A DNA stretch of 64,000 nucleotides from contig CM022671.1 of assembly GCA_012295275.1 (NCBI GenBank), positions 12,152,001-12,216,000 on the forward strand, read 5' to 3'. Origin of the DNA: Chrysomallon squamiferum. Lineage: Eukaryota > Animalia > Mollusca. Of this stretch, positions 4,656 through 46,974 are shown piece after piece. A program made the translations under genes and the position numbers. Position 1 is the stretch's first letter, and each line of letters starts with the position of its first letter. The notes below the pieces were generated by a model. It saw nothing but the letters and a program-made list of their open reading frames with translations, was not told where the DNA came from and did not search any database.

Positions 4656-5238
4656 TTTGATCAGCATTCATAAAAATGAAATAAATAATAAAACTGAAAA
4701 AACCCCGAAACAAGTGTAATACACAAAAGCATAATTCAGTAGAATTTAATGTAAAGAATATCCTTATTATCGTTGAGTTAATTTTTTTCTGCTCGTTCCC
4801 AACAGTACTATTCGTTTAAATAAGCAACAACAACAACATCAGCAACTGATTACGAGCAAGGAATCACTTTCACTAAGAGGAAGCAAGTAACATGTTTTTA
4901 GTTTTTAAAAATTTGTTTTAATTTAGCTTTTGTTATTCAAATATTTTTAGCTTTTGATATTCAACCATTCAGATTATTATTACTTATTAGAACAATTTCA
5001 CTGGTTTCATTTTGGAGCATGACTTGAAACTACAACGGATACTTCAGCACTTTGAATAAACAGTTTATCTGTTGCTGCAATAAGTGATGAAGTTTCAGTA
5101 ACGTAGCTTGTTTTGTTTGATGCACTACCCAGATTTACTGGTAGGCCTACATTTTAGATCAGTGAGAACATCCAGCTGGTGCCAGTTGTCGAATTCACGC
5201 AGATTTGTGTTTAATACAACTATTATTAACAGATAAGA

Positions 5239-7016
5239 ATGTCTCTTATATTAGGTGTTAATACTTTCTGCAGTACATTGCTGTGGTACTGTACTGTAAT
5301 GGGCTCGTTAACTCATCTGTGTCTGGCCCTGCTACTTCAGCACGTCAGTGCAGCTACTGTGTATATGTATGTAGGACCTCATGGATCAGACTCAAACAGC
5401 GGGTAAAGTGGTGGTGTTCCTGAATGTGTTTCAGTTCTTTAATACGTTTTTCTTAATAACATTATAAACACATATCCATAGTTAAAGGGTTGTTTTTTCT
5501 TTTCTTCTTTTTTTATAATTATATAAAGTAATAGTCCAAATATATTAGGAATATTAACCTAAAACAAATTTAAATTTTATTTGTTTTCTGACGTCCATTC
5601 TTAATTTATATTTAACGTATTTATTTTATTTTATTGTTTTCTTCAATACTACACTTAAATTAGTATGCAAAAGTTGTTGTCTTACACAGATTACTTTTAT
5701 TCAGAAAAAAAAAAAAAAAAACGTAACGAAGGTTTCATGCGGCGTCAGTAGAAAATTTAACGGTATTTTGAAAAATCTTGCATTCGTAAATTCTGATGAT
5801 TATTTCGTCGTTGTCGCCCTGATTGTCATCATCATTATTATCACTGATGTTGTTATGATGATGATGATGCTTATTATTATTATTATCATTATTATTATTA
5901 TTTTAGTGCAAGTCACGGAAATGCTTTCCTGACTTTGGAAAAAGCGAAATTGAAAGCTGTACATGAAACAGAAGTGAAAGGGAACAGTAAGCAGTTTTAG
6001 AATTTGTAGTAATTAAAAGTGATAAATTATACCAAATAATAAATCACATAGCTACTTTTTCTTCAACTATTGCTACTTAAAACTTGCTAAAAATTAAATG
6101 TTCGGTATTAATGGCAGTTAATTGGGTCATAATCTAAACATTGTAAAGAAAATATTAAACGTGGGACTATTAAATTCTGTCCATTATCATTATTATTATT
6201 TATAATTATGTTGATATATAATTGCAGTGTAGTATTGTATGTCATATATTATACAATAAAATTGTGTATATGAGAAAATTGTGTTCCAGAAAATTCAAAA
6301 GTAATCTTATTTTGGTTTAATGTTAACAGTATTAATATCCCAAACGCTATATATACGGATTACTGATCTTACATGCATTTCGAAACTGTTACTGGCTGAA
6401 GCTCATTACAAAGAAAGCTCACCTTCTTGGATCAAATATTCACAAGCACATAACTGCTATTATAGTAACTATCCGTGCTATATCAGACCTTCACAACTTA
6501 AAAAATAAATGTATGAGCGGTCCAAGATTATAAAATATTCTATAAAGACATCCTTAGTCACAAAAGATTTGCAGCCACTGACCTATTTATCAAACTTTAT
6601 AAAAATTAATGACAACTTTACATAATAGTTTTGCCTGTTATATTTTTTTTACTTTATTTTATTTTTTTTATACGCTTCTGCTTTTGTTATCATTTTTATC
6701 TTATCCTCAACACAAACAGAATGTTCTGAGATAACACAAAATGAATGTACTGGTTAGAACTATAAAAGTCTAGCCTTCATATTAATTTTGTTTTTCAGAT
6801 GTAAATGTGGGTTTGGTATATGTTGAGATAGAGAGAGAGACTGCTTATGTCAGTGCTACTTATGTTTTCAGTGAGACTGGGTTAGGGAGAGGCAGGCTTT
6901 TTATCCTTTGTGTGTGAATGACAGGTCGAGAGCATACAAACGTGAAGAATCATTTTATTTATTTTATTTTTGTTTTTACAATGAGAGGAGTTCAGTGCAG
7001 TTGATATTGATATTAA

Positions 7017-7069
<53 letters not shown>

Positions 7070-7515
7070 GTTTGTTTTTGTTCTGCAGGTGTCATTGTAG
7101 AACTTCTTCCAGGTTATCACGATTTGAAATCCACACTTCAGTTCTCAAACGGACACAAACATCGAGTCACTTTCCGAGCTTACAAAAGCCAGGAAGTACA
7201 CGTGGTAGGAGAACTTAGAACATGCTTATATACATATAAACACAACCAAGTACAAGCACGCACGCATAGATACACATACACACACACAGAGATACATTCA
7301 GTTTGAAGTGGATAAGATTTTATACAAGAATATGTATAAATTATGTTTTCATTTTCAAGTAGTATTCATGAGTGTGACATTGATTTCATTCAGACTGGTG
7401 GAAAGCGAATCAGCAGTAGTTTGTTCCATCACGTCACAGTCCACAGAGAGCTCCAGCGTTTACCTCATGTTGCAAGAAACAAAGTAAGAATTAAATATTA
7501 TCTTTTAGTTAGTAT

Positions 7516-7591
<76 letters not shown>

Positions 7592-7980
7592 TCCTTTTGG
7601 GAATACTGATCATTGCAGTTATAACTTATGTATAAAGTACAACTAATTTTTTATTTCAAGCAATTTAAATTAAAGTTCTGGGTCTGTATTTTTTTTTTTT
7701 TTTTTTTCACATTAATAGCATTATTTCATAGAATATCGTAGAAATTCTGTTGATCAATACTTGGTGATACAGACAGCTGTGTAATTTATAGCCATTAACT
7801 GATATTTCTTGTTCAGGTGGTCAAGGTACATTTGCCTGATGCTGGGATCACGGACTATGGACAGATGACGCGCTATGGTTTTGGCATTGTTAGAACGGCT
7901 CCTCTTGAACTGTTCATTAATGGCAGGCCAACACGATTTGCACAATGGCCAAATGAGGTATAAGGAAGTATAGTGACAGA

Positions 7981-8019
<39 letters not shown>

Positions 8020-9740
8020 AACACCTTAGGCCTGCAGTTAAAGGCTTCATGCATAAGATTTAAACCTTACAGATAAAACAACCGAAAAATAACAACAACA
8101 AAACTAAAAACAAAAATAACTTCACACGGCCTTAAAAAACATCGTAAATACATGCTTGAGCGATTAATAGTTTAATCAGGGCTACGTGCCTTAGACTGGC
8201 ACTCTGGTGTAAGTAGTAATTATCGGGAATGACATGAAAGCTTAGTACTGGAAGAGATGAATAGAAATAATAACAGAATTGTAGAGAAGATTAGAAAAGT
8301 ATGAAATTGACAGATTTTTCTCTCTTTTGTTATCCATCAGAAATTAAGATTTCTCTTTAATCAGCACCTTTCTTGGTTTATATAATTTAATATAATATTT
8401 AGTTCTTATCACACTAACGAAGTTTATTACATCGATTTTGTGTTCAGCTGCTGCATTTACGTTCATTTTAATAAAAATAATTTGTATGAGCTAATGATTT
8501 TTTTTATTTAAACTGTTGTCGTTTTCTTCATTCCGAACATTTTAAAACAACATCAGTATTATTATTCTTGCTACTACTATTACTATGTTACTACTGCTAC
8601 TGCTGCTACTATTATTATTACCACTTCTATATATATATATATACTACTGATAATAATAATAAAGAAAAATGACTATTCACGAAAATATTAGTTTAATATA
8701 TGTTTGTGATACGAGGGTTACATTAACGTGGAGTCTGTCCCAGACGGCAAAGATGGCGCAAGGTTTACATACTCCGTACCTGACAACAGAGACTTAAAAT
8801 GGGCTCATGAGAAGCAGCCGTGGGTTTACGGATTTTGGTAAGTGTGTCTGAGTGTGTGTGCGTGTGTGTAGTTATGTGTGTATATGTATATTGTCTCTGT
8901 GTGCATATGTGTGTATGTGCGAATGTGTGTGTGTACACTTATAGATACCTAAATTCAGTATATATACATACATACATATATCATACGTACATATTTACAT
9001 CCACACATACATACATACATAAATACATACATACGTACGTACATACATACATCCATACATACATAGATATATACATACATACATACGTACGTACATACAT
9101 AGATATATACAGACAGACAGACAGATGGACAGACAAACACTTCTGTTGGTGATACATTCAGCTATACACTCAAGCGTGCGTGCACGCACAAGAAAGGCAC
9201 GCACTTTGTGTGTCTTACTAATTTTTTAGGTACTGGGGATGGGCAGACGATGCTGTGAAGGTGACAAATTTTGACGTCCAAAATAAAATAATAACACTGG
9301 CCCAGCCTGTCAGATTTGGTCTTAGACAAGGTTTGTGTTCAAAATGATCAGCTGAAGATAACGTTTTATTATGTGAACTTTAGAGTGGTTTGTTGTATTT
9401 ATTCAGTGAACGGTTTTAACAAGTCACCTCTTTTAAATAAATATATTTGTCTGCAGGTATATGATGGTATAAATAGTGTGTATGTTTGTGTGTGTGCATG
9501 TGTGTGTGTATGTGTGTATGTGTTTGTATGTATACGTGTTTATTTGAGGGTATGAGTTTGTTTGAGTGTGTTTGTGTCTGAATATATAGGAATTTTAAAA
9601 TGAAATTAGAAATAAAAATACCCACTTGGGACAGGAACTCATTATAGTTAGATACACAATTTATCTCATTTTTTGAAATTGTTGTCATCTTACTTATTTT
9701 ATTAACAAAGCTATTTCCATCAGAAATAAAACAGACATAC

Positions 9741-9777
<37 letters not shown>

Positions 9778-10571
9778 CAATGCTGTAATATGTTGTTTAT
9801 GTAATACAAACAATATGTTTAGGTTTTCTACCAAACATTGGTGGTTTTTCCAAACAAGGAGGATATTTTCGAGTTATCAACATGTTATCCGAACTGGATG
9901 AACCAGTAAGTTATTATTTACTACAGAAATAGTGAAACAAATAATTATTAATAGTAGAGCATATCAAATTTTTCTATACAAACTTGAAGAATCTGAAAAA
10001 TAACTCATCAGAATAACATGAAAATAACATCCGTAAAATAAATGCTTAACAGATAATTTGCTATAAAATAAAATAATGATCACAACTGAATTAAACTGCT
10101 TTGTAGGGAGAATATTACATCGACCGAACAACAGGAGATTTATATGTTTGGCCTAACACTCCGTCGGGAACTCTGTCTCACTCAGATATCGTATACGCCT
10201 CGTTGATTAACACTTGTTTTAGGTAAGTTCACTGCTGATAACAGAGAGGAACCGTGGTCAGTTGTTAGCGGAACAATAAATCCTTCTAAGTCAGAATTTT
10301 CCATTCCATTAGATGCCACAAATCATTTGTTAATCTATTGTTTGTTCTTTGGATTGTAAGAGGCTTGTAAAAGAGTTTTGTTGCTGATCAGTAAAAATAT
10401 GTAATGTGTTTTCAAAACAGAAAATACAATTACACTGCACGCAGGAACATATCATAGAAATAAGTATTGTGATTTGGGTAAAACATTTATTTTTAAATAT
10501 TGCGTCATTTCCTTTCAGAAATTATTCGTCTTTTTCTTTCTTTTCTGTTTTTTAATATATATTTTTAAAAA

Positions 10572-10616
<45 letters not shown>

Positions 10617-11108
10617 GTTTTTATTTGTTTTGATGTTTTTATAGTTTAAAAAAAATAATAATAGATAATCAGATAATGTGACAATTTTGCTTTGTGCACA
10701 TTTCTCAATAAAAAGTTAAAATTAAAAAGGATTTTATAATAGATTTTATCATTTAACATAAATAAAGTAATGAAAGAAAACCACTTAATGTTTCTCTTTA
10801 CTCTTCAATATCACATTTATTTTAATTCTCGAATCCATTGCTTATTAAAAATAATATTTAAAAATAATAAAATACACTTTACAAATTAACTATTTGTATT
10901 ATACCTTGTTTATTCTGTTTTATCTGGGGTTTTTTGTTTGTTATTTTGACTGTTTTTTCTAGTATTGCCAGTGGTGTATATAATCTCGTTTTCTCGAACT
11001 TCACCGTGGAAGCATGTCGTCATCATGGTTTTAGTGCCACCGACATTCACAACGTCAAATTTATAAACATGGAAATTAAAAACTCAGGTATCCATTAAAA
11101 GGAAATAT

Positions 11109-11198
<90 letters not shown>

Positions 11199-14100
11199 AG
11201 TTCAAATATATATTATTTGTTTTAGTTTTTACTTTGTTTTTACTTTTCTGAATTTCTGAATAAAATATTTTAGGTGCTAATGGCATATCGTGTAGAGGAG
11301 ACTGTAGATCTATTACAGTGTCAAAGTGTGAGATACATCATGTTGACGGCGGAATCCATATATCAGGCAAGTAAAAATATAAGTTCTGCACTTTAATATT
11401 GGAAAATGTTTAAGTAAGTGATGGTAAAAATTAAATAGCAATGGCTAAACTCACTTGTATTTGTTTCTGTAACAAACAAAAAAATCTGGCACAAGGACTA
11501 TACGGTCAAAAATTAAAAAGAAACTAGTACACAAGCAATATAATAATTAACGAACTTATTTTAACTCTAAATGCAAAGGCGGCCAACACGATAAACAAGA
11601 TTATGTTATATGTTACATATATTTGCAGGTGGTAGACGTGCAACACTGACTCCCTCTGGAAACTTGATTGAAGACAATCACATATGGCAGTATTCCAGAG
11701 TTGCTGCTGTTGATCATTTCGGTATCGGCTGTTTTGGCGTGCACAACATGATACGTCACAATGAACTACACGATGGCCAGTATACTGCTATATGGTGGGC
11801 TGTATGTATAACAGGGCTTGTATTGCATGCATTGCAATCTCTCTATCTTAATACATACATTTTCATTTCTTTATTACAAATCTATATTTATGTTTCTTTT
11901 TCTTTATCTCTTCTTTGTATGTGTATGTGTCTATGTATGTTTATATACGAACGTGAGAGAAGTACTTTAATGCTAAGTAGATTGATAATTTGATATTTGC
12001 CCTGCATCTTTGCGATGTATAATGTTTTGAAATAATTCAGAACGAGACTATATGTAATACTTTTAGGGAAATGACCATGTAATTGAATACAATCACGTGT
12101 GGAACAACTGTGTCAATTCTAGCGACTGTGGAGCGATTCACGCTGGCAGAGACTGGACTAATGTAAGAATTTAGAGAACTACATTTAACAGATTCAAAAA
12201 TCTAACGTTTATCATTTGTATTTTATCAGTAACCACAAACTGATGATAAGTGTCTCTGAATGTTGTCAAAGGAAGACTATGTATAAAATCAACAATCACA
12301 GAAATCGATATACGCAAAACTTTGCAAAGATATGACTGTCCAGATTCTTATCTTTGTCTGAGATGATGATAGATACTAATTATGTATTTTAGTTCAATAA
12401 CAACGACGATCTAACTTATTTATATAATAAATGTAACTTAAATTTCAGCGAGGAAACGTGATTCGCTACAACCACATACACCACACTCTACGTTTCTGGC
12501 CTGGTTCACACGTCAGAGGAATTATGCTTGATGATCAGTATTCCAGCGTCACCATCGAGCACAACGTCTTCTACCACGTACTGCTTTCCTTAAAGCTAAC
12601 TGAATTAAACTATATTAATAATATAAAAAACATACTACCTTTTAAAAAGTAAATACGTGTAAATTAACCCTGAATAATAGATATATTCTGAAAATCGGAC
12701 TAGTTTCTTGAAAGGTAAATAATGTTGTATAATTTGAAACGCAATGCCTTTTTTTAAAACTATGTATTTTATACTGAAATAATATAGACTATAATGCTGT
12801 TACATAATTTGGAGTGATTTCCAACATTTACTGATAAGAAAATAATTTCTAAAATAAAAGAAAGCAACAAAAATTTGTTTTAAATTTATAATTTTATACA
12901 GTATGATATAACCTATTTTCAAGGCAATTTGTTGATATTTTTGTTTATTACCTTTGATTGTTCATGTATTTAGAATTATACATTATTTTGCTATGTCAGT
13001 TTTACTATGGCTTAAGTATCAATCACCTCCATTATCATTTAGATAATTAAGGTTAAATTTTAAAATGAGGAATTTTAAATCTAACATCAACAGAATGAAA
13101 TTCATGTGAACATTGGCGGAGGCAGAGACAACATCGTACGATACAACGTCTTCTACAACGCGACAGGGTCGTCGATTCATGTCGATGGACGGGGTTTACC
13201 AAATGGCAACGGAAACAATGGCACACTGGAAACCCGGTTAAAGGTACATTACTTTGTAAATACAGTCAAGTTATGACACTCTGGACAAATAACTATCAGG
13301 CACATGCGGAAAATTACCTAGGATGGCGAAAGCTCAAGGTTTGACACGTCTTCTCTGGAAAATAGTTTAAGAAGATAGAAATTCATTTTGAATAGGCGGA
13401 TTTTGAAATCAGAATACGTACCTGCTTTTACTTAATTATGTTTTTGTTTTTTTAAGGCAACCAGTTCTAAATTTATGTTTTTATTTTAAAATAAAAGAAG
13501 AAACAAAATGATTAAAACTTCATATAACGCGAGATTTTGCTGAGATAATGGAATGGTCATTATGATTATAAATATTTACTTTATTGACTCGTATCAACAT
13601 TTCTTGTATTTCTTCCCCATACCATTGTTCTCTTGCTTTTACAGGCTGTTCCATATACAAGCAAACTGTGGCAAGAAAAATATCCCAAACTTGCAGTTAT
13701 AGATCAGACAAATGCAAATGCTCCAGAAGGCATGTAATAACTGTAATTCAGGTTGTTAAGCTTTTTATAAAATCACGTGCTACATCTTCAGGTTTGTAAC
13801 TTCCAATTGCTTCTGTGACGTTTCAAAATGAATCTTGATATAATATTTATATAACATAAAAGAAAATAAAGATAAATAAAAGAAAATCTCTAATAACTGA
13901 ACACATTTTTTAAACATACAGTAGTAGATTCCTGTATGATAATGATTACATTATCGTATTTCACTGTTTCGTGGGGCTCTCATATAAATCGAATGTGACT
14001 TACAGATTCACCTTCCTAGAGAGAGGGACCAGTCGGTGTCATGGTTTGAGGTTAATTTTGGATCACTGAGACTATTTCAGGTGTACGATAGAAAATAATA

Positions 14101-17100
14101 AAAATAACAGAAGTGTAAAAATCTACAAGGTGCTAAACATTATTATTTCATTGTTTGTTTTATCGAAGTGCATAAAAGGATCTTTGTTGTGTACATCTTC
14201 AAGTAGAGGAATGCACACTCCTGTCTTTTCATAAAACAAAATACAGTGACTGGCTGGCAGAAATAATAAATAACCCAGTGGTTGCACCTAGTAGGCTAGA
14301 TACTTAAACTCACCATTTTCAAATCACTGTTCTAACCACTGAGCTAGTATCGTCTCAAATTGTAGAAGATGCACCCATTTCATGATAACTGATAACATAT
14401 AAACATCATTAATTGTTCATTTCAGGTAACAAAATATATGACAATGTATATTACAATGAACATGGCAAACAATTCAACCCTATCAGTGAGAGCTTGAACA
14501 CCATAAACTATTTTGATGTTCATGACAACTTTAAGGTAAATCATTTTTTTGTTTTCGACTTCGTGGTATATCAAATATTTAAAAAAAAAAAAAAAAAAAA
14601 CAATTATTATAATAATTATTATTTTTTTAACTCAGCTGTTTATGATTGTAGGTTCAAACAAATATGAACTTGTGACTGTCTACGTATCAGTATTATTATT
14701 TTACAAACTATACACCTAATTGCATATAGATTTAACAAAGACGTCAGATAACATAAAGCGGAAAATGTATTTATCTCCAATTCAGTATTCATACTAAAAC
14801 ACCATTTCAAAGATTAAACTGTATTTAACAGTCACCGTCACCAACTGACTTCTGGTCGCCAGAAAATAATGATTTTCGTCTGCGATGTCTGGCGGGCGAC
14901 TGGGCGAATACTTTGAACTTTGCACAACCAGTAGACTTGAACTCTGTGGGACCACGATACCAAACCGGGCCTGCGTACTTAAACATAGGTCAGTCATTTC
15001 TGACTACCATACAGCCGTTTGTACGTATGTGTGTTTATGTGAGGATGTGGGTATGAGTGTTTGTGTCTTGCGATTCCGATTTCCAGATGTATATTAAGAA
15101 TTAAAACTAAAAACTAAAAATGAAATTTGAAATAAAGATAAACGTTAGGTTGTTATGAGACGAACACGTTCTAGTTTTATTCATGACAGAATATGGTACA
15201 TCTTTTTTTATGTATCTTTTATTATTTTAAAAACCTGAATTTGAAAATGACCTAAATACGTTTTAAGATCTGAAACAGCAGTATTTGCTGGATTATCTCG
15301 TGTTTAGTCCACTTGATAAAACTGTTGTTGAACAAGATTTATAATAATAAGAAGTCTTAGTGTATATTTCATGACAAATTCTAATCCCTTTAATGTTAAT
15401 TCTACAGTATGGCATAAACAATCAACAAATATGATTTCAGTTAATATAATTATTTGGTATGATTGTTTTTTTTGAATAACAGAGCAAAGTTAATTTGTTG
15501 TCAAATAATATATATATTACTAAACAATTATTAGTATTATAACTCTTTAAACAGGTTTTTGTTAAAATAATATTTGGAATAACAAATATTATTTTTTGAA
15601 TATTAAGTGTACAATTTCATTAGCAAAAAAACAACAAAAAAAACCCAAAACAAACGAACAACGAGAGTAAAAACAAATAAACAGCCTCTTTATCAGTCAT
15701 AGAAATATTTAACAGACAGAATGCATTAATTAATAAATGAAAGTCCTTTTATAAAATCTGTTCTCAATGTGATGAAAGATATTCGTTTACAGATCGTTAT
15801 GAGAAGAGTCATCATTCTGCCACTCCCAAACCTTGTGCTGGAACACAGGCGCCCGCAACCAAAGCACCCAAAACACCCTACCTGTCTGACGGATCAGGAC
15901 CAAACAACATACATCCTGATATTCCAAAATATGGTGAGTAATAAATAAAATACTAGATTACATATATATATATGTGTGTGTGTATGTGTATGTATATATA
16001 TATATATATATCTATATATATGCAGTTTAAAAATCTAGTTGTTTCTCCCGATTGCAAATATATCAAGATTATATGTTGTTATAAAAGCCAAAACATGGTA
16101 GGCCTAGATATGTAATTTGACTGATAAAAGATCATACAGTAGTGAAAGTGGGATTCTTTTAATGACAGCTGTTTGAGTTCAGATATTAAATCTTCATATA
16201 TTTAAATGATAAAATTATATTTCTTCAAGGTTGTTGGTTTATCACGACTGGGTGTCCGCACGATGAATACAGCGGGCTAGTGAGAGACAAGTACGGAGAG
16301 GAACATGTAAATGCAGGACGAGACGAGGACGCGTGCCTGGCAAGAGCTGCCGACGAGTGGCGGTACTGCGGCTCGCCGAGTGACCACACAGTCACCACCG
16401 TTTTTGGACCAACAGGTAAAGCATTCCTAGCCTAGAATTCATTAAACTGTTTTCACTGTTTATTTAAATTTTTGTTATGAAAAAAGTAATTCTTTTCTGA
16501 ATATTCAAATTTAACATATAACATAAACAAGCAAAATGCAATAAAATTTACTTTTTAAATATTTTAAAAATGGCTATGAGGTTTTATAAAATACTATACA
16601 ATAATTTTAAAAACTCATAATATTTTCTATATTTACAGTGTTGAAACAGTGAGTATTTTTTTATGCTGGGTATAATTAAACGTCAGTTCTGTATTTTCAC
16701 AGGGGCCATGACACTCGCTGGTTCTGGCTGCTACTTTGCTGATTATGGCTGCCCAAAATATCACATATATCACCCTAAAGGCGCCTTCTACCATGACCAC
16801 TATGGTGAGCAGCATGGAGCACTCAGTGATGAAAACACTTGTCTCAGTCGTGCCAGAGATGAATGGGTCTACTGCGGATCTGATCCTAACTTTCCCATCA
16901 CAAGTCTTTATGCACCCACTGGTTCGTCAATTCATTGTAACTTTCATTTTAAAATAGTTTTATTATTTCTTTCCAAAAATGTTTTCATCCATCTCCTCTT
17001 TCATTTAGTCTGTCTTTCGTCTCTTTTCCTACATCTTAATGGACACTTTAGTGTCAACCACTCGTTCATGCTTGGACTGACTCTCAAACTCTCTGCTCAT

Positions 17101-17699
17101 GCTAAGTTTTAACTATTAATATTTCACTTGTTCAACATTTATGTTCTTGTTTTTTTTAACACAGAGTTTTAAAGTCTTAAAACTTCTTTTCTTTTATAAT
17201 AACATTCTGCTTTTTTTCGTCACCCTCAGGTAAATCAAAATCTGCTGGTGGCGGCTGCTGGATTAAAATAAAAAATTGTCCTGGAGACTCTAAACTGCAA
17301 CACACATTTTTCTATGATGCATGGGGAGCAACGAACTTGGATACAGGCATTTTCATATTGCAATATTCCACTTTTTAGTTTTTTGGTGGAGTTTTTATTA
17401 TTATTATTATTATTGATATTTCTTTTCTATTTCATTAATTTAAAAATACTATGTAACATACTGATATATTGTACAGAATGTACTATAACTAGAAGTATTT
17501 TTTTCTATTTAAAATTAACAGAAACATCAGTGTTAAATAATCCATTACTGACATACACACTGACTCTACTTATTAACACATTATCTACCTATTAAGAGAA
17601 TATTTTCTAGGAAACCTTTTAATTACGTTTTTTTTCCACTCTATATGTTCTCTTTTTTTCAATTTTATGATCAAAACAATCTAAATTTGGATTTTTAAC

Positions 17700-17754
<55 letters not shown>

Positions 17755-17919
17755 AAGGACATATGTTGTATTTTCATTTTATTTTTCACAGATCATGATC
17801 AGAATGTGTGTTTTGAAAGAGGCAGATATTTCTGGCACAAATGTGGAAGTCATGACAACTATCCAGTATCAGCATATTTCCGGCCAACTGCTTCATCCAG
17901 AACAAGTCCATCTCACTGA
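5239..17919 (+). CDS. Secreted right-handed parallel beta-helix protein (bacterial GH141-like/pectin-lyase fold) with three C-terminal Cys-rich repeats, ~973 aa, 23 exons
   Basis: Exons 5239-5402, 5907-5986, 7089-7204, 7394-7483, 7817-7957, 8716-8837, 9230-9330, 9823-9905, 10107-10222, 10963-11087, 11274-11366, 11629-11801, 12067-12162, 12449-12577, 13094-13243, 13645-13729, 14426-14535, 14832-14988, 15793-15933, 16230-16415, 16703-16921, 17230-17346, 17792-17919 join to a 2922-nt open frame. Hydrophobic leader ending ...LLLQHVSA. Motifs YVGPHGSDSNSG..AFLTLEKA, ELFINGRPTRFAQWPN, GFWYWGWAD, NMLSELDEPGEYYID, GGRRATLTPSGNLIEDNHI, GNDHVIEYN..SDCGAIHAGRDWT.RGNVIRYN, GIMLDDQYS, IGGGRDNIVRYNVF. The start could alternatively be the in-frame ATG at 5299. 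Confidence 0.88.
11113..11194. repeat. (AG)n microsatellite
   Basis: Read directly. Confidence 0.95.
14200..14360 (-). mobile_element. Possible tRNA-derived SINE remnant
   Basis: The - strand reads ...TAGCTCAGTGGTTAGAACA (A-box-like), followed by a degenerate B-box and no cloverleaf. A similar head (GGGCTATAGCTTAGTGGTA) occurs at ~34215 on +. Confidence 0.35.
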
Positions 17920-18209: not shown

Positions 18210-20406
18210 TCATAAATGTTTGTAGCTAGCAATAACTTGTTCAAGCGTCACAAAACTGTTAAGAAAGTCCTCCTCTGTGAGGCCATGTTTAACATACTGA
18301 TGGACATATGCCCTTGAAGCAAACATATTCCAAGCTTTTCCCACCATCCGATCCATAGAACCAAGAGATGATTTGCTATTACTAATCAACACTGCAGACT
18401 TTTCATACTGACAGAAAGATCTTGGCTGTTTCATAACCTGTAACTGAAAATCTTTTGGCATCCACTCTGCATACAGCTTACGTTCAGTGAAAGGTGTGAT
18501 GTCAGCTTTATCAGTATCTTTGCCTCGAAGAATGAGTACATTGGCTAGAGATCTGTTGTACTTTGTGCTGCCTCGCGGAGTCTCAGAACCTGCCTGGACA
18601 TCCCAGTCAATTCCTACACAGAAAATAAAACAGTGATACTGAAATCAAAATAGTGTGTGTGTGTGTTTGTGTGTGCATGTGTGTCTCTCTCCACATAAAT
18701 TTCTGTGTGTGGTTGTGTGTAGAGATTTATAAAAATTATTATTCAGTATATATATATATTTTTTTTTACTGTATACATTTATATATATACACACACAATA
18801 AAAACAAATATATATATATACTGAATTTTTCAAATAACATTTTGTTATATAAAATATTACTTTAATTAAGCCTAAGGGACAAAATTCTAATTTAATTTTT
18901 TTCATATTTACGACATTAATTTTTGATATGATTTTGTAATGATAAAAACATATTCATCCAACTGTTTTTAAAACAGAAAAATGTTCAGCATGAAGTAATA
19001 ACTGAAGCTTGCTGCAGACAACCTGTTAAACAAACTGGGAAAACACCCATGTAAGTGGAGTGAAAAAAGTGAAAAGAACAAAAAAAGGCTAAAGATAATT
19101 CTGCTTCAGTTGAATAATACACTGTGGATATATCTAGATGGAGTTATACATAAAAACCTATGATATTTTGTTATCTGAAATAGTTTACACAATATAACAT
19201 GTTAAGATATAATTAAAATCTTTACTCAGGATGGACTGCCATATTTAGATACACTATTTTCTTTTTTGTTTATAATGATCACCTTCTTCCATGGCAGCAT
19301 TTGCAATAAGCATCTGTCGAAGATGTTTGAGTAGACCATGCCACTGATATACAGAAAACTCCATTGATCTCTCTGCAATCTGTGGAATGTTTCGAACATT
19401 GAGGAGTTTGTACTCTGGCTGTGGGATTAGATGTTGCAATAGGTAACCTGCAATAAATTCAGTACAGAGAAAAACGTGTTTGCCACATTGATGTTTTGTT
19501 GTTTATAGAAAGACATATTCTCTCTCTCACTCATTTCCCCACCTCCTTCCTCCTCCATAAATTTATCTCATCATATACCAACACGCATTCAAAAACTTTG
19601 TATTTCTAACCATTTCTATACTTACCAAGATCATTTGAATTTGAATAATCTCCTTCCTCAGAGCCTGCTGGAAGCAAGAAACTGGCAAGTTTGTGTGAAA
19701 TCACTTTATTTATGTCTCTGAAAGAAATTTTCTTGATGTTCAGTAACTGAGAACAAATTTTCTGAAGTGAATCATTCTCCATGACAACAATGGCATCTGA
19801 TGTCTGGTACAAGTGAGATAATGTTAGCACAGCATTGTAATTCTGTACAATTACCTCACCTGTTTCATAAGGCCACACCACCTGATTAAGAATAAAAGAA
19901 AATGGAAACTCATCACGGAGACTCTCCGTGAGTCTTGCACCCACACCTGACCCCGTCCCCCCTGCAAGACTCATCAGCAAGAGAAAACCTGCCAATCTGT
20001 CACACTTCTCTGCCTCACATCTCACCATCTCCATGATATCAGCCTGCAGTCGAGGACCATGGACACAATATCCATCAGCCCAGTTATTTCCAGATCCTCT
20101 TTTCTGACACAACTGTTGCTTCTCTGGATAAACCCATTTGCCAGTTTTCTTAGCTTCCAGACAAGTTTGCATTATGGCTTTGGGTTCCATATCAACCATA
20201 ACAGCCCTTGCCTCAAATGATGGGATTCCTTTCTTATCCTTTTCATTGAAAAACATTTCTGTTGCTTCCTTCACATAATCTTTGTTTTTGTTCAGAGGTA
20301 CAAGGACACTGGAAGGTTTGGCATGGATGTCATTAATAACTGTTGAGAAGAGCTGACCACCAATCTGGTTACCACACTGACCTAACTGAACTGTGACAAC
20401 TGACAT
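18210..20406 (-). CDS. TUBD1: Tubulin delta chain (449 aa, 3 coding exons)
   Basis: Exons 20406-19626, 19447-19283, 18613-18210 (1350 nt). N-terminus [34 protein letters not shown], tubulin signature AGGTGSG, delta-type [20 protein letters not shown], and C-terminal [25 protein letters not shown]. Confidence 0.97.
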
Positions 20407-21437
20407 TGTTTAACAAGATAATTAAATTTCAATGTGAATTTCACAGACCAGTTTTCCAACTAAACAGAGAGATTAATCAAGCTGCGTAAACATAGATTTA
20501 AAATCACGTCTGAAAAATGTAAAAAAGATGAAAAAAATTAAATAAAACATATAATGAAAATATACTGGTGACATACATACATTAGAAACAAAACATATTT
20601 TAATTCTTTTACAGTATTAGTACATAAATATCAACTCTAAAATATGCTTTTGTAGTCTTTAATAACAACATAAATTCTGAGAAGTTTAGTTAGCAAGATT
20701 ATTCAGGAGAAAGAACAGTAACAGAGAACAATATTTAAAATTAACTGTGTAACTAATTTTTTAGGTTCTCTTCCATAAACTTTTTTCTCGTTATAACCAA
20801 CTTACTAATTTTAATTTTCATTTATGGTCAGTATATATATTAAGTGAAAATTTCAACCAGATATGCTCTTAATAACTGTAAATTAATTTGTTTATTATTG
20901 TATATAGACATTCACACTGATAATAGAATCAACAATTCTTTTTCTGATTTTATTTATTTTGTATCTTCATAATCTTGGTATTGGTATTATTGGCAGAAAT
21001 ACCTCCCGTCACAAAATAGCTAGGAAGTCGGATATATAAAATTAAATAGTAAATATATTTGTAAAAAGTGTAAAAAGTTAGAACAGAACATTATTTTAGA
21101 TTTATATCATTACGGGAAATGAATATATCTTCTACTGAAAGTCAAACTAAAAATATATATATTTTTTTAAAATAATAAACAACCAAAATATGCTTTTTTT
21201 GAGTTATCGGCCTTGGTATTGCTAAATATTAATTTGAGTCGGCTCTGAGTTAATGAGAAAAAAATATTTTAATTGATATTCTTGTTAAGATTTTAATTTA
21301 AAATATTATATATTAATAACATGTTATGCACTTTTCATTTTTTTGTATATTATATACATAGTTTCTATTTATTTCATGATTACTAATCTCTTTCTATGTC
21401 ATCGTAGTTTACATTTATAGTTTTCAATTATTTCAAA
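20407..21437. promoter_or_regulatory. Putative bidirectional promoter / 5'UTR region of TUBD1 and MRPL50
   Basis: Divergent start codons ~1 kb apart. On the - strand a splice acceptor lies near 20510 and a candidate donor near 21002, suggesting a non-coding first TUBD1 exon. CpGs reappear locally at ~21000-21250. Confidence 0.5.
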
Positions 21438-23594
21438 ATGTCTGCCCCCATGAGACGGATTTTGTTTTCACCTTTGCTGTCAAACAAATTGATTATTCAT
21501 AGAAATCAGGTAGCTGTCGTATTGTATCATTATTATTTTACCAGTGATATACTTTACGATTTAAAAAAACAACCCTCTGAATATATAATTATGTATTATG
21601 TTCTATGCACACACACATGCAGTGACCTGCATTTAGAAAATCGTCATTAGTATTATCGTGCGAAGTCGCAAATGTTTAAATAACATTTGTAATGTCAAAG
21701 ATAAATCATGACATAACGTAATCCGTCATTCATATTTAATAAATTAAATGAGTAATAATTAATTCACTTTATACTTCAAATACATTTTATGTATTATATC
21801 ATTCTCATTGTATTGTTAAAAAGTATAAAATTGTAAACACTAAAACAGTTGTTCCAAAACAGAGCAAACTCAAACAAAATATTTCAGTGCCTGAAAGTTT
21901 TTAAGTATTTACAAATTTGGAAACATTCCCCAAACTATTATTATTTGATTTAATTTATTAATATTAATAATAATAATAATAAAAAATTCGGACATAGATT
22001 AACATCGATAAATGATTATATATATATTGCATCCATCCATCATTAGATATTATATTGAATATTAATAGATTATTATTCCTCCTCCTTTTCTTCTTCTTCT
22101 TCTTCTACTACTTATTATTATTAATTTGTTTATATATATTTCTTTTCTTTTCTTTCTTTTTTTAAAGTGTCCATGTAGGACAGCATTCTTTTGGAGAAAG
22201 AAGAAAGATGAGACAGATGAAAAGGCGCCAGTTGAAACTAGGAGATTACAGCCACAGGTTGATGGACCAACAACAATAGACAGACTGCAGTCTCTTAAGA
22301 AACAAACGTAGGTTTTCAGTAGGAATTGGCAGTAGCAGAAGTTACATGAACAAGACATAGAACATGTAGCAACTTTTCAAATTTTTTGGCTTAACATGTC
22401 ATATAATTATTTCACTTGATGTATTTGTATGAAATGATAACTGTTCAGCTTCACTTGACATATAATAATATAATTTTTTACATTTAGATTGTGAGATAAT
22501 CTGCTTTCCTACAAATTTCCAGGAAAACAGTTTCTTATTTGGCATTAATTTTAGATAACAAGTTTCTCATTTTTACACTTTGACATTCATTTATTTCCTT
22601 TTGTTTTTGTCCATTGTAGAATAATGCCCTTTAGGGGGTTGTTTTGAATTTAATTCAGTCTTGCCATTGGGTTCTGAGAATTAAATTTTATTTTTCTGTG
22701 GACGTATAGTCTTCAGTAATATTAATAATGTTATTATTATATAATTTTTTAACATGAGTTTTTCTGTCAAAACAAAATTAGAAATGTACATAATGAAATC
22801 CTTTTGTCTTTAAAAAGAGATTTTTTAAAAATAGAATTTAATTTTTTTCTTCTTATTTACATTTGTTTGAATGAAGCATGTTAATCAGTGGTTTTGTTTC
22901 AGGTCTGTTTGTACAGTTAAAGGGTACAAACCTCCTGATGACTTACTTGAAAGAATGGAACAGATAACTTCTCAGGTGTGTGGTGACGTGGATGACTGGA
23001 AATCTGTGTCACTAGATGATAACAGGCGACTGAAGTTCAAGGTAATTAATGTTAATTGATTAATATTATTATCCATTCATTCATTTATTTGCAGACTGAT
23101 TAACCAACATTAAATGTGCATCATTTAGAGAACCATGCAACGATTATTTTATTTTAATTTAGTCTTCATTGTTTTTCATTACTTAATCATAATAATGATG
23201 ACAATGGCAAAAGAGAGAAAACATTGTGCAGAAAACACAGTTTAGTAATTGCTATTAGGGCATGTATGATCTCTACATGTTCTGATATGTCACATCATAT
23301 AACACTGTGTATTTTATTTTATTTCAGCTACTGACGAGATTCATTAAAGAATTTGATCATGACATCGCAAACGCTGATCTTCACAATTTGCACAAAGTCA
23401 GTGATGCTGTCAGCTACTTCCAAACCGAGGTCAAAGACACATCTACATATGAAGACCTGTCCAAACTGGATTTGCCTAAAAATTTACATATTCAATTAGA
23501 ACCTCTGCGATTTGACCCTGACAGTGACACCATGTTCGGTGGAGTGTCAGCTTTTGATCAAAAGACTCAGAAAAGCAGATCAAGATGGGCCTAA
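21438..23594 (+). CDS. MRPL50: Mitochondrial large ribosomal subunit protein mL50 (~205 aa, 4 exons)
   Basis: Exons 21438-21509, 22168-22307, 22903-23041, 23328-23594 in frame. Basic N-terminal targeting peptide; YKPPDDL, LKFKLLTRF..EFDHDIANADLH...VSDAVSYF, and YEDLSKLDLPKNLHIQ match my recollection of the mL50 family pattern. Confidence 0.85.
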
Positions 23595-34026: not shown

Positions 34027-35174
34027 CCTGTTTGGTAAGCTTTTTAATTACTATTTTGTCTTCTAGGTTTACCGAACAATCGGATGATCATCCTTCAGAC
34101 TTCAAATACAGTTGTCAGTATTAATTGTAAGTATATCTAACAGAACAAGTATTTTACATGATTTTAACATTGTGTAAGTAATAATTAAATGCTGAAAATA
34201 GCTATTTTATAAACGGGCTATAGCTTAGTGGTACACTAATAATTTGAAGTGTAATTGTTCGTAGTGCTTTCTCAGAGAATACTCTTTTCAGTCAGGGCTG
34301 TGGAGATTATCAAATGTATTTTGTTATTTATGCTAGCTGTTTACTCTCTTATAATAATCATAAAAAAACATGGTTTACATGTAGTAAATTTTAATCCTTA
34401 ATTCATATTTATAACGGTTTTTTGTTGTTGTTGTTTTTTTCACTAGGTCCCACTCTTAATTTTGATCAAGGAACAATGTTTGCTGAGAGGTCAATTTTAG
34501 GTGACGACATCATGACAAACCACCCACCTGAAGAACCTCTGCCGGAGACTGGTTGCCGACTCAAGGCCTATCCAGGCGCTTTGGCTGACAGAACTCTGTG
34601 TGGGTACGCAGTAATAAACTCAAACTGGCCAGTCTTACCCAAAGGCAAATACATGTGGGTAACAAAAACTATGATGTCTCTGAAACAAAAGATTCCTGAC
34701 AACAAAATGGTGTTCGAAGCGGCTCTCACGGACAGACCGGTGGACGCTAGATTCAGTCAGAGAATTGGGTCAAGTGTTGTCCTTGCTGGTTGTGATCAGC
34801 ATCAATCGTTGTGTCTCAAAGTTAAGTATAACGGAAAGGTAATGGCACATATACCTAGCGGAAAAAATAGACCATCGGAAAAAGGACACTACGACATAGG
34901 ATTCCTGCTTGATCTTGATAACACGACATTACATATATTCAATATGCTCTCAGGACAGTGTATTTTCTCTATTCATGATATCGATGTAACAAGACCTCTT
35001 AGGCCCGTTTTCTGTGTAGGACGATACACATTTGCTGACATTAAGTTAAGATTAGTTACGGGAAATAAGGTTGCCTTACCTGAAGGCGTGAGCGCTATTT
35101 TGAGAAGTATATATGATGATGATAGATGCAGTACGCTGACGTTTACTGTTGACGAATCAGCGGGCGTCAAATAA
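31932..35174 (+). CDS. TRIM-family protein (RING, two B-boxes, coiled coil, SPRY/B30.2-like C-terminus), ~797 aa, 4 coding exons
   Basis: Exons 31932-33462, 33781-33855, 34067-34126, 34447-35174 in frame. RING CLFC..CCLNTVCSRC..CPICR; B-box1 CQVC..CENCCMFLCDDC..H..H; B-box2 CQVHPFSRLTLFCCSCNVVICSTC...H..H; helical region; SPRY-type YDIGFLLDLDNTTLHIFN...PLRPVFCV. Confidence 0.9.
33947..34024. repeat. (AG)n microsatellite
   Basis: Read directly. Confidence 0.95.
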
Positions 35175-42435: not shown

Positions 42436-43831
42436 CTTGAAACATCAGCTTTACATTTAAACCTCAGCGGATTTATTCTTGTCCGCTGCTTATGTAGTTG
42501 TCTTCCTGTTCAAATTATTTATTTTTGTTCATAATTCTTTCATTTTTTTTTTTTAAATATGTATAAAGCATAGGGTCGACGTAACTAATTGTACTTTATT
42601 CGCACTTTATATAAAAAATAAAAATTTAAAATTGTACGCGATTAAATCATTAAAGAGTAAAATGATTTTTATTTTTTGTTATTTAATACTATTGACTTAA
42701 TAGTATAGGAGAAGGCTTTAACATACTTGCATTTTATTGCAGCTCCAAGTTCAAGCTTGACAGTCAGTGGATCTATCCTCATTCGTGCTCTCTTGTGTTT
42801 ATTATTTATCTTCAATAAACTATCCCACGAAACATTTATCAAAGTCAATTGGCGGTTCTTTCCAGTCTACGGAAAGGTGATACAAATGATATGCATTGCC
42901 ACTAGTAGATGAATAAAGAGAGAGGAATTTCATCCGTTTTCTTTTTTTCTTACTGTTATACAAGAAATCTGTTAGAATCAGAAAAGAGGAACTATTAAAG
43001 TGTCATCACATATTGTTATTTTGTTATTAAATGTAATATTTTTCAGGCCGCCATTCTGTTGACCGATTCCAAGATGCTTTATTTGAGCGTTATGAGCAGT
43101 TTGGGAAGATCTGCAAAGAAACGATTGGTACTGAAACTGTGGTTCATTTGTTCGATCCAGACTACATCCAGGAAATGTACAGACAAGAAGGGAAATACCC
43201 GTCAATTCCTCCACTTATTGAGGCATCAAAGAATTACCGCGAGTTTAAACAAATATCGCCCGGCCTAGGCAATGTGTAAGAAACAGTTATTATAGTAAAT
43301 AAATAAATGTGTGTGTGTCTATGTATATGTATATATGTGTATGTGTGTGTGTGTATATACCCATACGTATGTACGAGTGTATGAGTGTGTTTGTATGTAC
43401 GTACGTATGTATTAGTCTATTTATTCTTTATTTATTTTCTTTTAATAATTCTTTATTACTTTATTTATTTAACAAAATCTTTCATATTTTTGTTTAATGT
43501 ATTTATTTATTTATCATTCATTTCTTCTTTCATTCGTTATTATTTATTTATTTTTATAATTTATTTAGTATTTATTTCATTTATTTATTATTTATTTCAT
43601 TTCTTCTTTCTTTCTTTATTATTTATCTATCGTTCGATTTACATTTGTTATTTATCTGTGTACCAAACTGTCCTTCCAACGTTTACGTCGACTGAGCTTG
43701 CTCTTGTTGTGTGGATACAAAATTTACATAGACTATGGTCACAGGTTGAATTCTGTGACCTATTATCTGTAATTATCGCTATCCTTGTTATTCAAAATTA
43801 TTGCACAGTCATAAAAAGGTTTTTAGTTGGG

Positions 43832-43891
<60 letters not shown>

Positions 43892-44566
43892 ATTATAAAT
43901 ATCGATGGAAGTAACAGGCATAAACATCAAGTCACTATTAAATTACAGTTAAATTAAATAATAAGACAAATTAACAAAGGTAATTTTTATATTGATGGAT
44001 GTTCAGGTTTAATATATATCAGATTCTATTCGTTCGTTTTTCTTTTTAATAAAATTGATTTCGTTTTCAATGTAATATATATTACCAGATGGCACTCACG
44101 TCCGTTTCAAAAATTCTAGATTCAGTTTATGCGTGTGCGGAGGTATTTATAATTCTTTTATGAACACAAACAGAATTTTACTTTATGGATAAAATCTGGT
44201 TATAAATAATTTCTTCTAGAAATGGTTCGGACTGGCATCGTCTGAGAAGTGCTGTACAAAAACTTATGCTAAGACCGAAAGAGGTAACAGAATATTTACC
44301 TATGATGGAAGCAATAGCAGACGACTTCATGGCGAAACTGTGCAGAAAACTTACCAGGGACGGCAAAATAGAAGACTTTTACAATGAAGTAGCCAAATGG
44401 AATCTTGAATGTTTGTTTGTCCTAGTTACTTGATTTATGTATTAGTTCGTTACTTTGTAGTAACGAAAACATTTAGTATGCATTAAAAATAGTAATAATA
44501 ATTAAGAAAAAAGTAACAAATAATAATAATAATAACAATAATAACAACAACAACAACAACAAGAAC

Positions 44567-44597
<31 letters not shown>

Positions 44598-45807
44598 TTA
44601 ATGCTAACATAAAATAAGTATAATGTAATAGAATCTGTATATGAGAGTGTTTCAGTGCTTACAACTGTTCTTTTAATTCTTCCTTCCTATTATTATTCTT
44701 TTACCTTTGACTGCTTCTTTCGATTCTTCTTTATTTTCTCTTTGTCTGTATATCATATATTATTAAATTAAACATTTTATGCAGCATCTGGAATGATCTG
44801 TTTTGAGTCACGTATAGGAGGTTTGGACGAGCAAACTGACAGCGAAAGTCAAATGATCATTGATGCTAACAGTGACATCTTCAGCTTGGGCACAAAACTG
44901 AAATTTTCCTATCCATGGCAAAGGAATGGGTCCAAAACTTGGCAGAAACACATGGACGCCGAAGAACGCTTTTTTGGGTTCGTTACAAATAAAATTCAGT
45001 GTGTCTTCATAATAATGCCATTAAAAAAACGAGTCTTTCTCGAATCTATTATTTATTTCTTAAAAATAAGAACATTCTCACTTGAAGATACCTGCAAATG
45101 AACTAGATTTTGCATTAACAGAAGTCGAGATAAGATTAAATATAGAGGTCGGTTTATTATCTAACCAGGGGTTCTTAATCTTATTGCTTTTTAAATACCA
45201 TTTTCAAATAATTTCAAATAATGCTGGTGACCTCTAAGTTAAATACAGAAGCACTATGAATTTGAAGTGACGCTGTGATGCCATGCTTCTCGAAGGTGCT
45301 CATCGTTAGATCCTAACGGCGGCGTAAAATGGCGCGAACAACAACATGATGACTGCGTTAACAGAAGTGTCGTTACGATGTCGTAATTGAGTGAATCGCT
45401 GTGTCAGTATTTACTTTGCAATACATGTTTCGAGCAGTGCCTGACCCATAAATCATGTGTTTTAATGTCTAATTGGTGAACAGATCTATTTATTCACATG
45501 TTTTGTTGAATACATTATATTTTATTACAACTAATGCACATGATATGTTTTGTCTGAATATGACCAACAACAAATGTGAATAGACAAATCTTTAATAAAG
45601 GACGTTGTTAACAACAGGATTAGACCTGTTGCTAATATAACGATTTTGTAGGCCAACGACATTCATAAAACACATTGGAAATCATGAATATTATTTCACC
45701 GATACGTTACCGTTATCGTTATACATAACGATGACTAGGAATATGGTCCAACCTTGAGAATCACCGATTTCGATGCTTCACAAATTATCCTCATTCTACC
45801 AATGATA

Positions 45808-45867
<60 letters not shown>

Positions 45868-46974
45868 AAGAAAGAGAATGCAATGAACTGGTGTGACTCG
45901 TTTCGTAGTTAGAGCGCTCCATTAAGGTTGATGTTCCTCTACTTAAAGAGTTCCATACAAATATGTACATTGTCCTATTCGTATATTTAATTATAGAGAC
46001 AGTTTTTTCGTAAATGTAAACTTAGAGAACTGTTACATTATTAAATATCATCTTGAGTGAATTTTTAAAATATGTATTTTGTTTTGCTCAGGAAAGGTCA
46101 GGAATATGTGGACAACACTGTAAGAAATATTGACACGTTACTGTCGTCAGGTCAGCTGAGTGATAATCAGTACAAACTGATGGCTTACCTCCTTTCCAAA
46201 AAAGAACTGAATTTCAGTGACATAAGCATCCTTACTCTTTCCTTCTTTGGTGACGGGCTTACATCGGTGAGTGCTTAGGCAGGACTGGGTTACTAAGGAT
46301 ATAAATATTTAGCAAATCATTTTATAACCGGACTGGATGAATAAACACGTGAATTAATCATATAAATTCCCAGGTTGTAGTTTATTTTGTTTCTGGAGAT
46401 GAGTTTCCGATAACAATAAAGTATAGTTTTAAAATAACAAGCTCGTACGGATGCTTTAAGGCAGACGTTGCTTTTTGCAGGTGTCCATCTCGGCCATAGA
46501 AGAAATATCTAAAAGACTGAGCAGCTAGTATTAATGGCAACCATTTGAGAAATAAACAGTCGCTAATGTATTTGTTCTTTTTAATTTGAACTACATAATT
46601 TTGTTATTTAGCATCATCATCACTCATTGTTATTATTATTATTATTAGTCTGTGTATTTATATATGTGTGTGTGTGTGTTTGTAGGTATATGTATGTGTG
46701 TTATATATATATATATATATATAAATATTCAGTTGACTCAATTTAGATTGTACCATCTATGATAAATAATCTGTACAACCTGGCTACAAATCCTGAAACT
46801 CAGAAAATACTGTTTGAAGAGATCAACTCATCTCTACCCAAAGAAGGTGGCCGCATGACGCCACAAACACTGACCAAACTTAAGTATCTGAGAGCGTGCA
46901 TAAAGGAAACATTTCGGTAATAATATCCACTTTTTGAGAAAAAAAATTAAAAATTAAAATATTAACTGTGTTCG

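Follow-up and report, generated by a model that had tools for sequence, protein, structure and literature searches.

Gene structure and domain organization

The window analysed here is a 64-kb stretch of the Chrysomallon squamiferum genome (positions 12,152,001 to 12,216,000 of contig CM022671.1, assembly GCA_012295275.1), which contains a gene for a putatively secreted protein with a predicted right-handed parallel beta-helix, related to glycoside hydrolase (GH) family 141. The gene lies at 5239..17919 on the forward strand, where 23 exons were spliced from splice signals into a single open frame of 973 amino acids (aa) with one terminal stop; no paralogue was found elsewhere in the window. 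This agrees with the 22 introns and the frame of about 973 aa proposed in an earlier note on the sequence, and all motifs quoted there were found, in the same order. Its interval for the gene, 5239..14988, was wrong, since 14988 is the end of exon 18 only (710 aa) and exons 19-23 are located at 15793..17919.

The splice model was compared with an orthologue from Gigantopelta aegis (P0001, 951 aa), found with a single window exon as query. Across an alignment of 952 columns, in which only 4 positions are gaps, the two proteins have an identity of 69%, a similarity far beyond chance that validates every splice junction by homology. Nineteen of the introns are of the GT-AG type and three are GC-AG (after exons 11, 16 and 22), while rarer acceptors (GAG/AAG) are used at 8716 and 16230. 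Two of the three GC donors correspond to GT in L103, a bivalve-like contig from a marine metagenome, which may point to a lineage-specific switch. The GC content is 45% in the exons and 27% in the introns. Two coding sites, 5327 (A30V) and 7925 (R187W), were different in sequencing run X2 than in the window, representing alleles or another individual.

The frame has two candidate starts, the upstream in-frame ATG at 5239 (M1) and M21 at 5299. Alignment with the orthologue suggests that translation may start at M21, giving an 18-aa leader like that of P0001. The leader was judged to be a signal peptide by eye, from its hydrophobic stretch, its alignment to the P0001 leader and the N-terminal helix of the P0001 model, and the secretion proposed earlier thus stands. 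Beyond the catalytic module, the earlier note had missed a linker and, at the C-terminus, three Cys-rich repeats. Each is about 63 residues long and has four cysteines and two aromatic residues that are conserved. When a profile built from the repeat was run against 324 fetched proteins, it matched 47, every one of them either named as a mollusc protein or placed in the mollusc clade. As far as these comparisons go, the three four-cysteine repeats are confined to mollusc proteins and are new here. They had no match in Pfam or in PDB sequences and no usable match in the ESM Atlas (best template modelling (TM) score 0.35 by query). Symmetric phase 1-1 exons, as seen for the first two repeats, are the typical pattern of shuffled extracellular modules. 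Haliotis, Littorina and Mytilus also have shorter paralogues (about 707 aa) that contain no repeats, indicating that the catalytic module is able to stand alone. The repeats are likely later additions by exon duplication and would serve in binding or anchoring; they probably represent a new carbohydrate-binding module.

Predicted fold and catalytic aspartates

Searches of single exons against Pfam gave only a weak Beta_helix match. The fold was modelled from the full-length orthologue P0001 with AlphaFold2, using an alignment of 107 sequences. The model had a predicted local distance difference test (pLDDT) score of 94.9 and a predicted TM score of 0.89; folded without the alignment, the same protein reached a pLDDT of only 32.5. 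In three structure searches with this model, the GH141 enzyme BT1002 (5MQP) ranked first. The match had an E-value of 5.1e-21 with Foldseek and a Z-score of 35.5 with VIA-align (489 residues aligned, root mean square deviation 2.7; runner-up Z 29.7), and a wide search of 48,161 chains placed it at Z 35.1. The next structural neighbours were alginate epimerases and lyases of polysaccharide lyase family 6 (PL6), with Z 28-30 over about 300-370 residues. A profile search of PDB sequences ranked 9RX2 first (E 1.9e-59) and also matched 5MQP (E 9.1e-28) and 3VST (E 9.6e-8). The structural check called for in the earlier note thus returned, for the orthologue, a beta-helix with BT1002 as the top match.

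To relate the protein to BT1002, whose residues D523 and D564 are described as essential (PMC12786026, section 2.1), we used GH141_M-positive proteins from five bacterial genomes as canonical GH141 intermediates. In the alignment of one of these with 5MQP, its two aspartates fall on positions 528 and 569 of the 5MQP sequence, which we convert to D523 and D564 by an offset of 5, taking chain residue 18 as sequence position 23. In the family alignment, the corresponding columns contain D488 and D528 of the window protein. The D488 column is Asp in 59 of 64 mollusc-clade rows, all 22 canonical GH141 rows and 321 of 326 others; the D528 column is Asp in 60 of 64 mollusc-clade rows (the other 4 being gaps), 21 of 22 canonical rows and 323 of 326 others. 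D488 and D528 are thus predicted to be the GH141 catalytic aspartate pair, and the aspartates of the D-x-GAI and LDD motifs, put forward earlier as candidate catalytic residues, retain that status. A Ruditapes paralogue (P0038) has neither the D488 equivalent nor the second Asp of the LDD motif and is possibly a non-catalytic copy. The five bacterial genomes, from the Planctomycetes-Verrucomicrobia-Chlamydiae group or the Armatimonadota (L070-L099, G001-G005), contained 3-28 GH141_M matches each, indicating that the superfamily is greatly expanded in these bacteria.

Distribution in molluscs and phylogeny

We obtained two lists of homologues with 120 rows each (240 in all). All eukaryotes named in them are molluscs, from 23 genera (8 of gastropods, 14 of bivalves and 1 of chitons), and no non-mollusc eukaryote, cephalopod or heterobranch was named among the 240 matches listed. 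The top 49 of 120 listed rows, which include P0001 and otherwise have 40-61% identity, consist of 45 named molluscs and 4 transcript-sized Logan contigs, below which identity falls to 36%. The four homologues on Logan contigs have frames of 942-956 aa on 2.9-3.2 kb of sequence and hence represent spliced mRNAs. A HMMER search of 1.84 billion representatives yielded 4,401 hits at 1e-30, and the best 150 of these comprise 21 of mollusc type and 129 outside that clade. Judged from these sequence matches, the gene belongs to a mollusc-wide family and is not peculiar to the C. squamiferum genome; named orthologues include LOC121368738, LOC124120284, LOC111122626 and KP79_PYT15959.

The intron positions indicate that the gene is old in molluscs. 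In L103, which is closest to Mercenaria, 10 of 11 introns match window introns 8-17 in both position and phase, and the eleventh falls beyond the local alignment; the boundaries were picked among nearby AG/GT sites guided by the window protein, which introduces a mild circularity. Several paralogues share one scaffold length per species in Littorina and Liolophura (P0009, P0011, P0014, P0015, P0041, P0042; P0036, P0043, P0044, P0047), suggestive of tandem arrays in grazers.

The maximum-likelihood trees suggested in the earlier note were rooted on canonical GH141 after rows with core coverage below 40% or 55% had been removed (2 of 264 and 19 of 431, respectively), with subsets of 60 and 38 rows for IQ-TREE. 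The molluscs formed a clade with support 100* and a stem length of 0.7-1.0, inside starred nodes of prokaryote type, and were nested among prokaryote-type proteins in all three rooted trees. Their nearest neighbours varied between the trees and no donor clade was resolved. Within the clade, the gene tree separated chitons, bivalves and gastropods (FastTree 0.999, 0.755 and 0.988; IQ-TREE 100*, 84 and 97*), and the window protein was sister to P0001 (100*).

Integration in the host genome

The earlier note had also argued for genuine integration in an animal genome, and this is upheld by the introns shared with L103 and by the eukaryotic neighbours of the gene. Of the linkage to TUBD1 and MRPL50 that it described, a tubulin-family gene and a gene for mitochondrial ribosomal protein mL50 were located downstream. 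By motif, we take the tubulin to be of the delta type; its best PDB matches are gamma tubulins. It lies tail-to-tail with the GH141-like gene, about 300 bases from the stop, and the 3' ends may thus overlap. Coordinates of all features are listed in Table 1.

Bacterial contamination or a misassembled gene model has a negligible probability. The absence of an RNA contig over exons 1-9 in Chrysomallon would fit such an artefact, against which stand the 22 spliceosomal introns, 10 of them shared with L103, the adjoining tubulin-family and mL50 genes, the location of orthologues on scaffolds as long as 130 Mb, and the coverage of 27 of 30 bins by a probable DNA run (its kind is not on record). We rejected contamination, which the conserved intron positions already refute.

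Table 1. Features of the GH141-like gene and of its surroundings in the window.
Feature	Position	Strand	Basis or remark
Exons 1-12	5239-5402, 5907-5986, 7089-7204, 7394-7483, 7817-7957, 8716-8837, 9230-9330, 9823-9905, 10107-10222, 10963-11087, 11274-11366, 11629-11801	+	
Exons 13-23	12067-12162, 12449-12577, 13094-13243, 13645-13729, 14426-14535, 14832-14988, 15793-15933, 16230-16415, 16703-16921, 17230-17346, 17792-17919	+	
GC-AG intron 11 (GC donor at 11367)	11367..11628	+	Splice model; same position is GT in L103
GC-AG intron 16 (GC donor at 13730)	13730..14425	+	Splice model; same position is GT in L103
GC-AG intron 22 (GC donor at 17347)	17347..17791	+	Exon added by this intron supported by gap-free alignment to P0001
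Likely signal peptide, M21-A38	5299..5352	+	Hydrophobic stretch; aligns with P0001 leader (helix 2-15 in model)
GH141-like catalytic module, aa 39-710, ~76 kDa	5353..14988	+	Predicted right-handed parallel beta-helix with inserted domain
D488, predicted catalytic (equivalent of BT1002 D523)	12124..12126	+	Family alignment
D528, predicted catalytic (equivalent of BT1002 D564)	12530..12532	+	Family alignment
Exon 19, Pro/Thr/Lys-rich linker, aa 711-757	15793..15933	+	Sequence
Exon 20, Cys-rich repeat 1, aa 758-819	16230..16415	+	Symmetric phase 1-1 exon
Exon 21, Cys-rich repeat 2, aa 828-892	16703..16921	+	Symmetric phase 1-1 exon
Exons 22-23, Cys-rich repeat 3, aa 901-964, and stop	17230..17919	+	Sequence
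Tubulin-family gene	18213-20409	-	Pfam E 5.6e-46; gamma tubulins are the best PDB matches
Mitochondrial ribosomal protein mL50 gene	22170-23594	+	E 6.5e-5
259-aa open stretch	34395-35171	+	No Pfam match at 1e-3
Cytochrome P450 gene exons	43037-46917	+	E 2.5e-10 and 8.6e-4
400-aa open exon, CortBP2 match	54556-55755	+	E 6.6e-6; read as coiled-coil CTTNBP2/FILIP1-like

Origin of the gene

Taken together, we lean towards a secreted GH141-like hydrolase that likely derives from a bacterial transfer into the mollusc stem lineage and likely acts on complex polysaccharides of the food in the gut. According to this scheme, a bacterial gene would have entered the mollusc stem lineage, and its product would cut glycosidic bonds in the groove of the beta-helix with D488 and D528 in the roles of acid/base and nucleophile that have been proposed for the GH141 pair. 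The family-conserved Arg and Trp may hold a heteropolysaccharide, probably anionic and containing deoxy-sugars or pentoses, from microalgae, seaweed or biofilm. Several observations on origin, on family assignment and expression, and on substrate weigh against this reading.

Regarding the origin, the nesting of the molluscs among bacterial proteins is borderline, in that forcing all ingroup bacteria together, with the molluscs outside, cost 55 log-likelihood units with a p-value of 0.0499 in the approximately unbiased (AU) test (38 rows, simpler model without mixtures). The 129 non-mollusc representatives were called prokaryotic by eye, and they come from the best 150 of the 4,401 hits. In addition, a cluster of look-alikes in the ESM Atlas with 314 members is 53% eukaryotic, with Rotifera as the commonest group, leaving the restriction to molluscs unproven and allowing for a wider eukaryotic history. 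An entry into Spiralia or an earlier eukaryote with patchy retention, in which case rotifer and mollusc copies would be orthologous, is nevertheless rather unlikely. Losses do seem common, as no cephalopod or heterobranch was named among the hits listed, and the long mollusc stem could conceal a fast-evolving sister. On the other hand, the eukaryotes named in the 240 listed rows are molluscs only, prokaryote-looking representatives fill the best 150 behind the molluscs, and 47% of the Atlas cluster is non-eukaryotic. Bdelloid rotifers have acquired many genes by independent transfers, which also counts against a shared older origin. A single transfer into stem molluscs is the more probable course of events. 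The ancient horizontal acquisition proposed in the earlier note accordingly gains from the mollusc-wide distribution among prokaryote-looking proteins, with no other eukaryote named in the listed hits, and is weakened by the borderline AU test and the rotifer-rich cluster.

Family assignment and expression

Regarding the family, P0001 scored 12.4 bits against GH141_M, the Pfam model of the GH141 insertion domain, below the cut-off of 27, although weak matches were obtained for 35 of 37 family members (best E 1.4e-4). We therefore class the protein as GH141-like and not as a tested GH141 member, an assignment that was rejected on the cut-off; of the relation to GH141 claimed earlier, the beta-helix fold and the aspartate pair support the likeness and the cut-off limits it to that. 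The product is predicted, on the basis of the model, to be an uncharacterised GH141-like secreted hydrolase, and the databases label the family 'right handed beta helix domain-containing protein'.

Regarding the expression, three Chrysomallon RNA runs yielded, over 5100-10400 (exons 1-9), nothing but short matches to repeats and no covering contig, although contigs cannot show absence. Four runs were available for the organism and the best RNA share was 0.06, too small to count. In a mussel, two transcripts with the labels Beta_helix and NosD were found at 41 and 30 transcripts per million (TPM) in the digestive gland and at <0.9 TPM in four other tissues, among the rows listed in supplement 1 of PMC5549309. 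The NosD domain is matched by 31 of 37 family members, and the mussel transcripts are tied to the family by this pair of Pfam labels, not by sequence. With a label that fits the family, these look-alike transcripts suggest digestive-gland-specific expression.

Function and substrate

Regarding the substrate, none of the three residues (W, N, R) listed for the endo-fucanase branch of GH141 in PMC12786026 was in register when 9RX2 served as a proxy for the GH141*6 signature. Bacterial gene neighbourhoods gave no consistent substrate either. These comprised 28 of 69 loci with 177 open reading frames, analysed with no background control and with P0052 as query, which is a top BLAST match and not the nearest tree neighbour. 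A neighbour resembling a carbohydrate-active enzyme (CAZyme) or a sulfatase was present at 14 of the 28 loci but was of mixed kinds (including GH29, GH78, apiosidase, rhamnogalacturonan lyase and heparinase-like domains), with GH29 at 1 locus and sulfatase at 3.

These results bear on the possibility that the gene encodes a so far unclassified mollusc endo-fucoidanase that cuts sulfated fucans from brown algae and diatoms, which we regard as unlikely. In its favour, GH141 includes endo-fucanases (PMC12786026), the fucoidanases of Lambis and Patinopecten yessoensis are described as unassigned to any family (PMC11943901), and the gene is present in Mizuhopecten yessoensis, Pecten, Littorina and Haliotis, with several paralogues in grazers. 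Moreover, an Arg five residues before D528 is specific to the mollusc clade (59 of 64 rows, as compared to 0 of 59 bacterial rows). Against it stand the missing fucan-binding residues, the rarity of GH29 and sulfatase neighbours, and the fact that freshwater genera have kept the gene, as has a vent snail with symbiont-reliant adults (PMC7895826); Gigantopelta is reported there to graze as a juvenile only. The absence of the endo-fucanase signature, together with the retention in freshwater molluscs and Gigantopelta, argues for a broader substrate.

More speculative still is a scenario in which a single capture by a stem mollusc, before the split of chitons, bivalves and gastropods, was followed by the gain of about 20 introns and a three-repeat, disulfide-rich glycan-binding module, producing the missing gene for the animal-encoded degradation of fucoidan or sulfated glycans, an activity measured for a long time in mollusc digestive glands. 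If true, molluscs would directly degrade a polysaccharide whose breakdown has been credited to specialist bacteria only. GH141 is treated as fucoidan-associated in bacteria only in the available text of PMC11685898 and PMC13668718.

A non-digestive role on own or microbial glycans (mucus, shell matrix, defence against biofilms or capsules), a polysaccharide lyase or a non-catalytic binder is improbable. The gene is retained across molluscs of very different diets, and alginate epimerases and PL6 lyases are the next structural neighbours. However, those matches span fewer residues than that to GH141, the aspartate pair is nearly invariant, and the mussel look-alikes are specific to the digestive gland. 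The preferred reading, a gut hydrolase for food polysaccharides, retains from the earlier note the secretion and, as predicted by the model, the GH141-like fold of a putative enzyme for algal or bacterial polysaccharides.

Such an enzyme would belong to a phylum-wide, likely bacteria-derived digestive family that has been left uncharacterised in databases. The analysis identifies the exact residues to mutate and genes to assay in farmed species (abalone, oyster, scallop and mussel), and it provides a testable candidate for the mollusc fucoidanases still unassigned to a family.

Comparison with known systems

We found no description of a mollusc GH141-like family in the literature, although subscription papers and unread supplements could still hold one; the supplements of PMC12040131, PMC5840672 and PMC4203926 gave no match. 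Bacteria-derived CAZymes in animals are an already known kind, as exemplified by GH30 of shipworm, oyster and scallop, which is intron-bearing, secreted, expressed in the digestive gland and proposed to result from an ancient bacterial transfer (PMC5840672). GH30 has another fold and represents another family, while the mollusc GH141-like protein has neither a CAZy family nor an activity assigned to it in the sources searched.

The GH120 beta-xylosidase XylC (3VST) has a related beta-helix (Z 20.1 in addition to the profile match) with one aspartate on D528, but is a far weaker structural match. A Glu one coil later in 3VST, which we take to be the GH120 acid/base with the Asp as nucleophile, aligns with Gly in a weak stretch of the alignment, and GH120 membership was rejected on these grounds.

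BT1002 is the best structural match, with both essential aspartates in register and a common overall architecture, yet it is only 15% identical in the structural alignment, and the mollusc gene is eukaryotic with extra C-terminal repeats. The mollusc proteins also form a clade separate from canonical GH141 (99-100*). The endo-fucanases Wf141_1/2/4 of GH141*6 (PMC12786026) and 9RX2, the best PDB sequence match, share the aligned aspartate pair, whereas the mollusc proteins lack the W, N and R residues to which binding of sulfated fucose is tentatively ascribed, the W-bearing loop being deleted. We infer from the spacing of these residues that 9RX2 belongs to the GH141*6 branch; no paper on 9RX2 was found.

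Further close relatives are uncharacterised bacterial right-handed parallel beta-helix repeat-containing proteins, the named ones mainly from Planctomycetota, Armatimonadota, Lentisphaerota and Hydrogenedentota. They are 28-36% identical over 60-70% of the protein, have a TM-score of about 0.9 and share the DxGA, LDD, GGGRD and DGRG motifs with the mollusc proteins, but have no introns and no Cys-rich repeats, and the residues around the second aspartate are the molluscs' own. Characterisation of the mollusc enzyme would provide a first function for this large bacterial sister group of GH141 (4,401 representatives at 1e-30).

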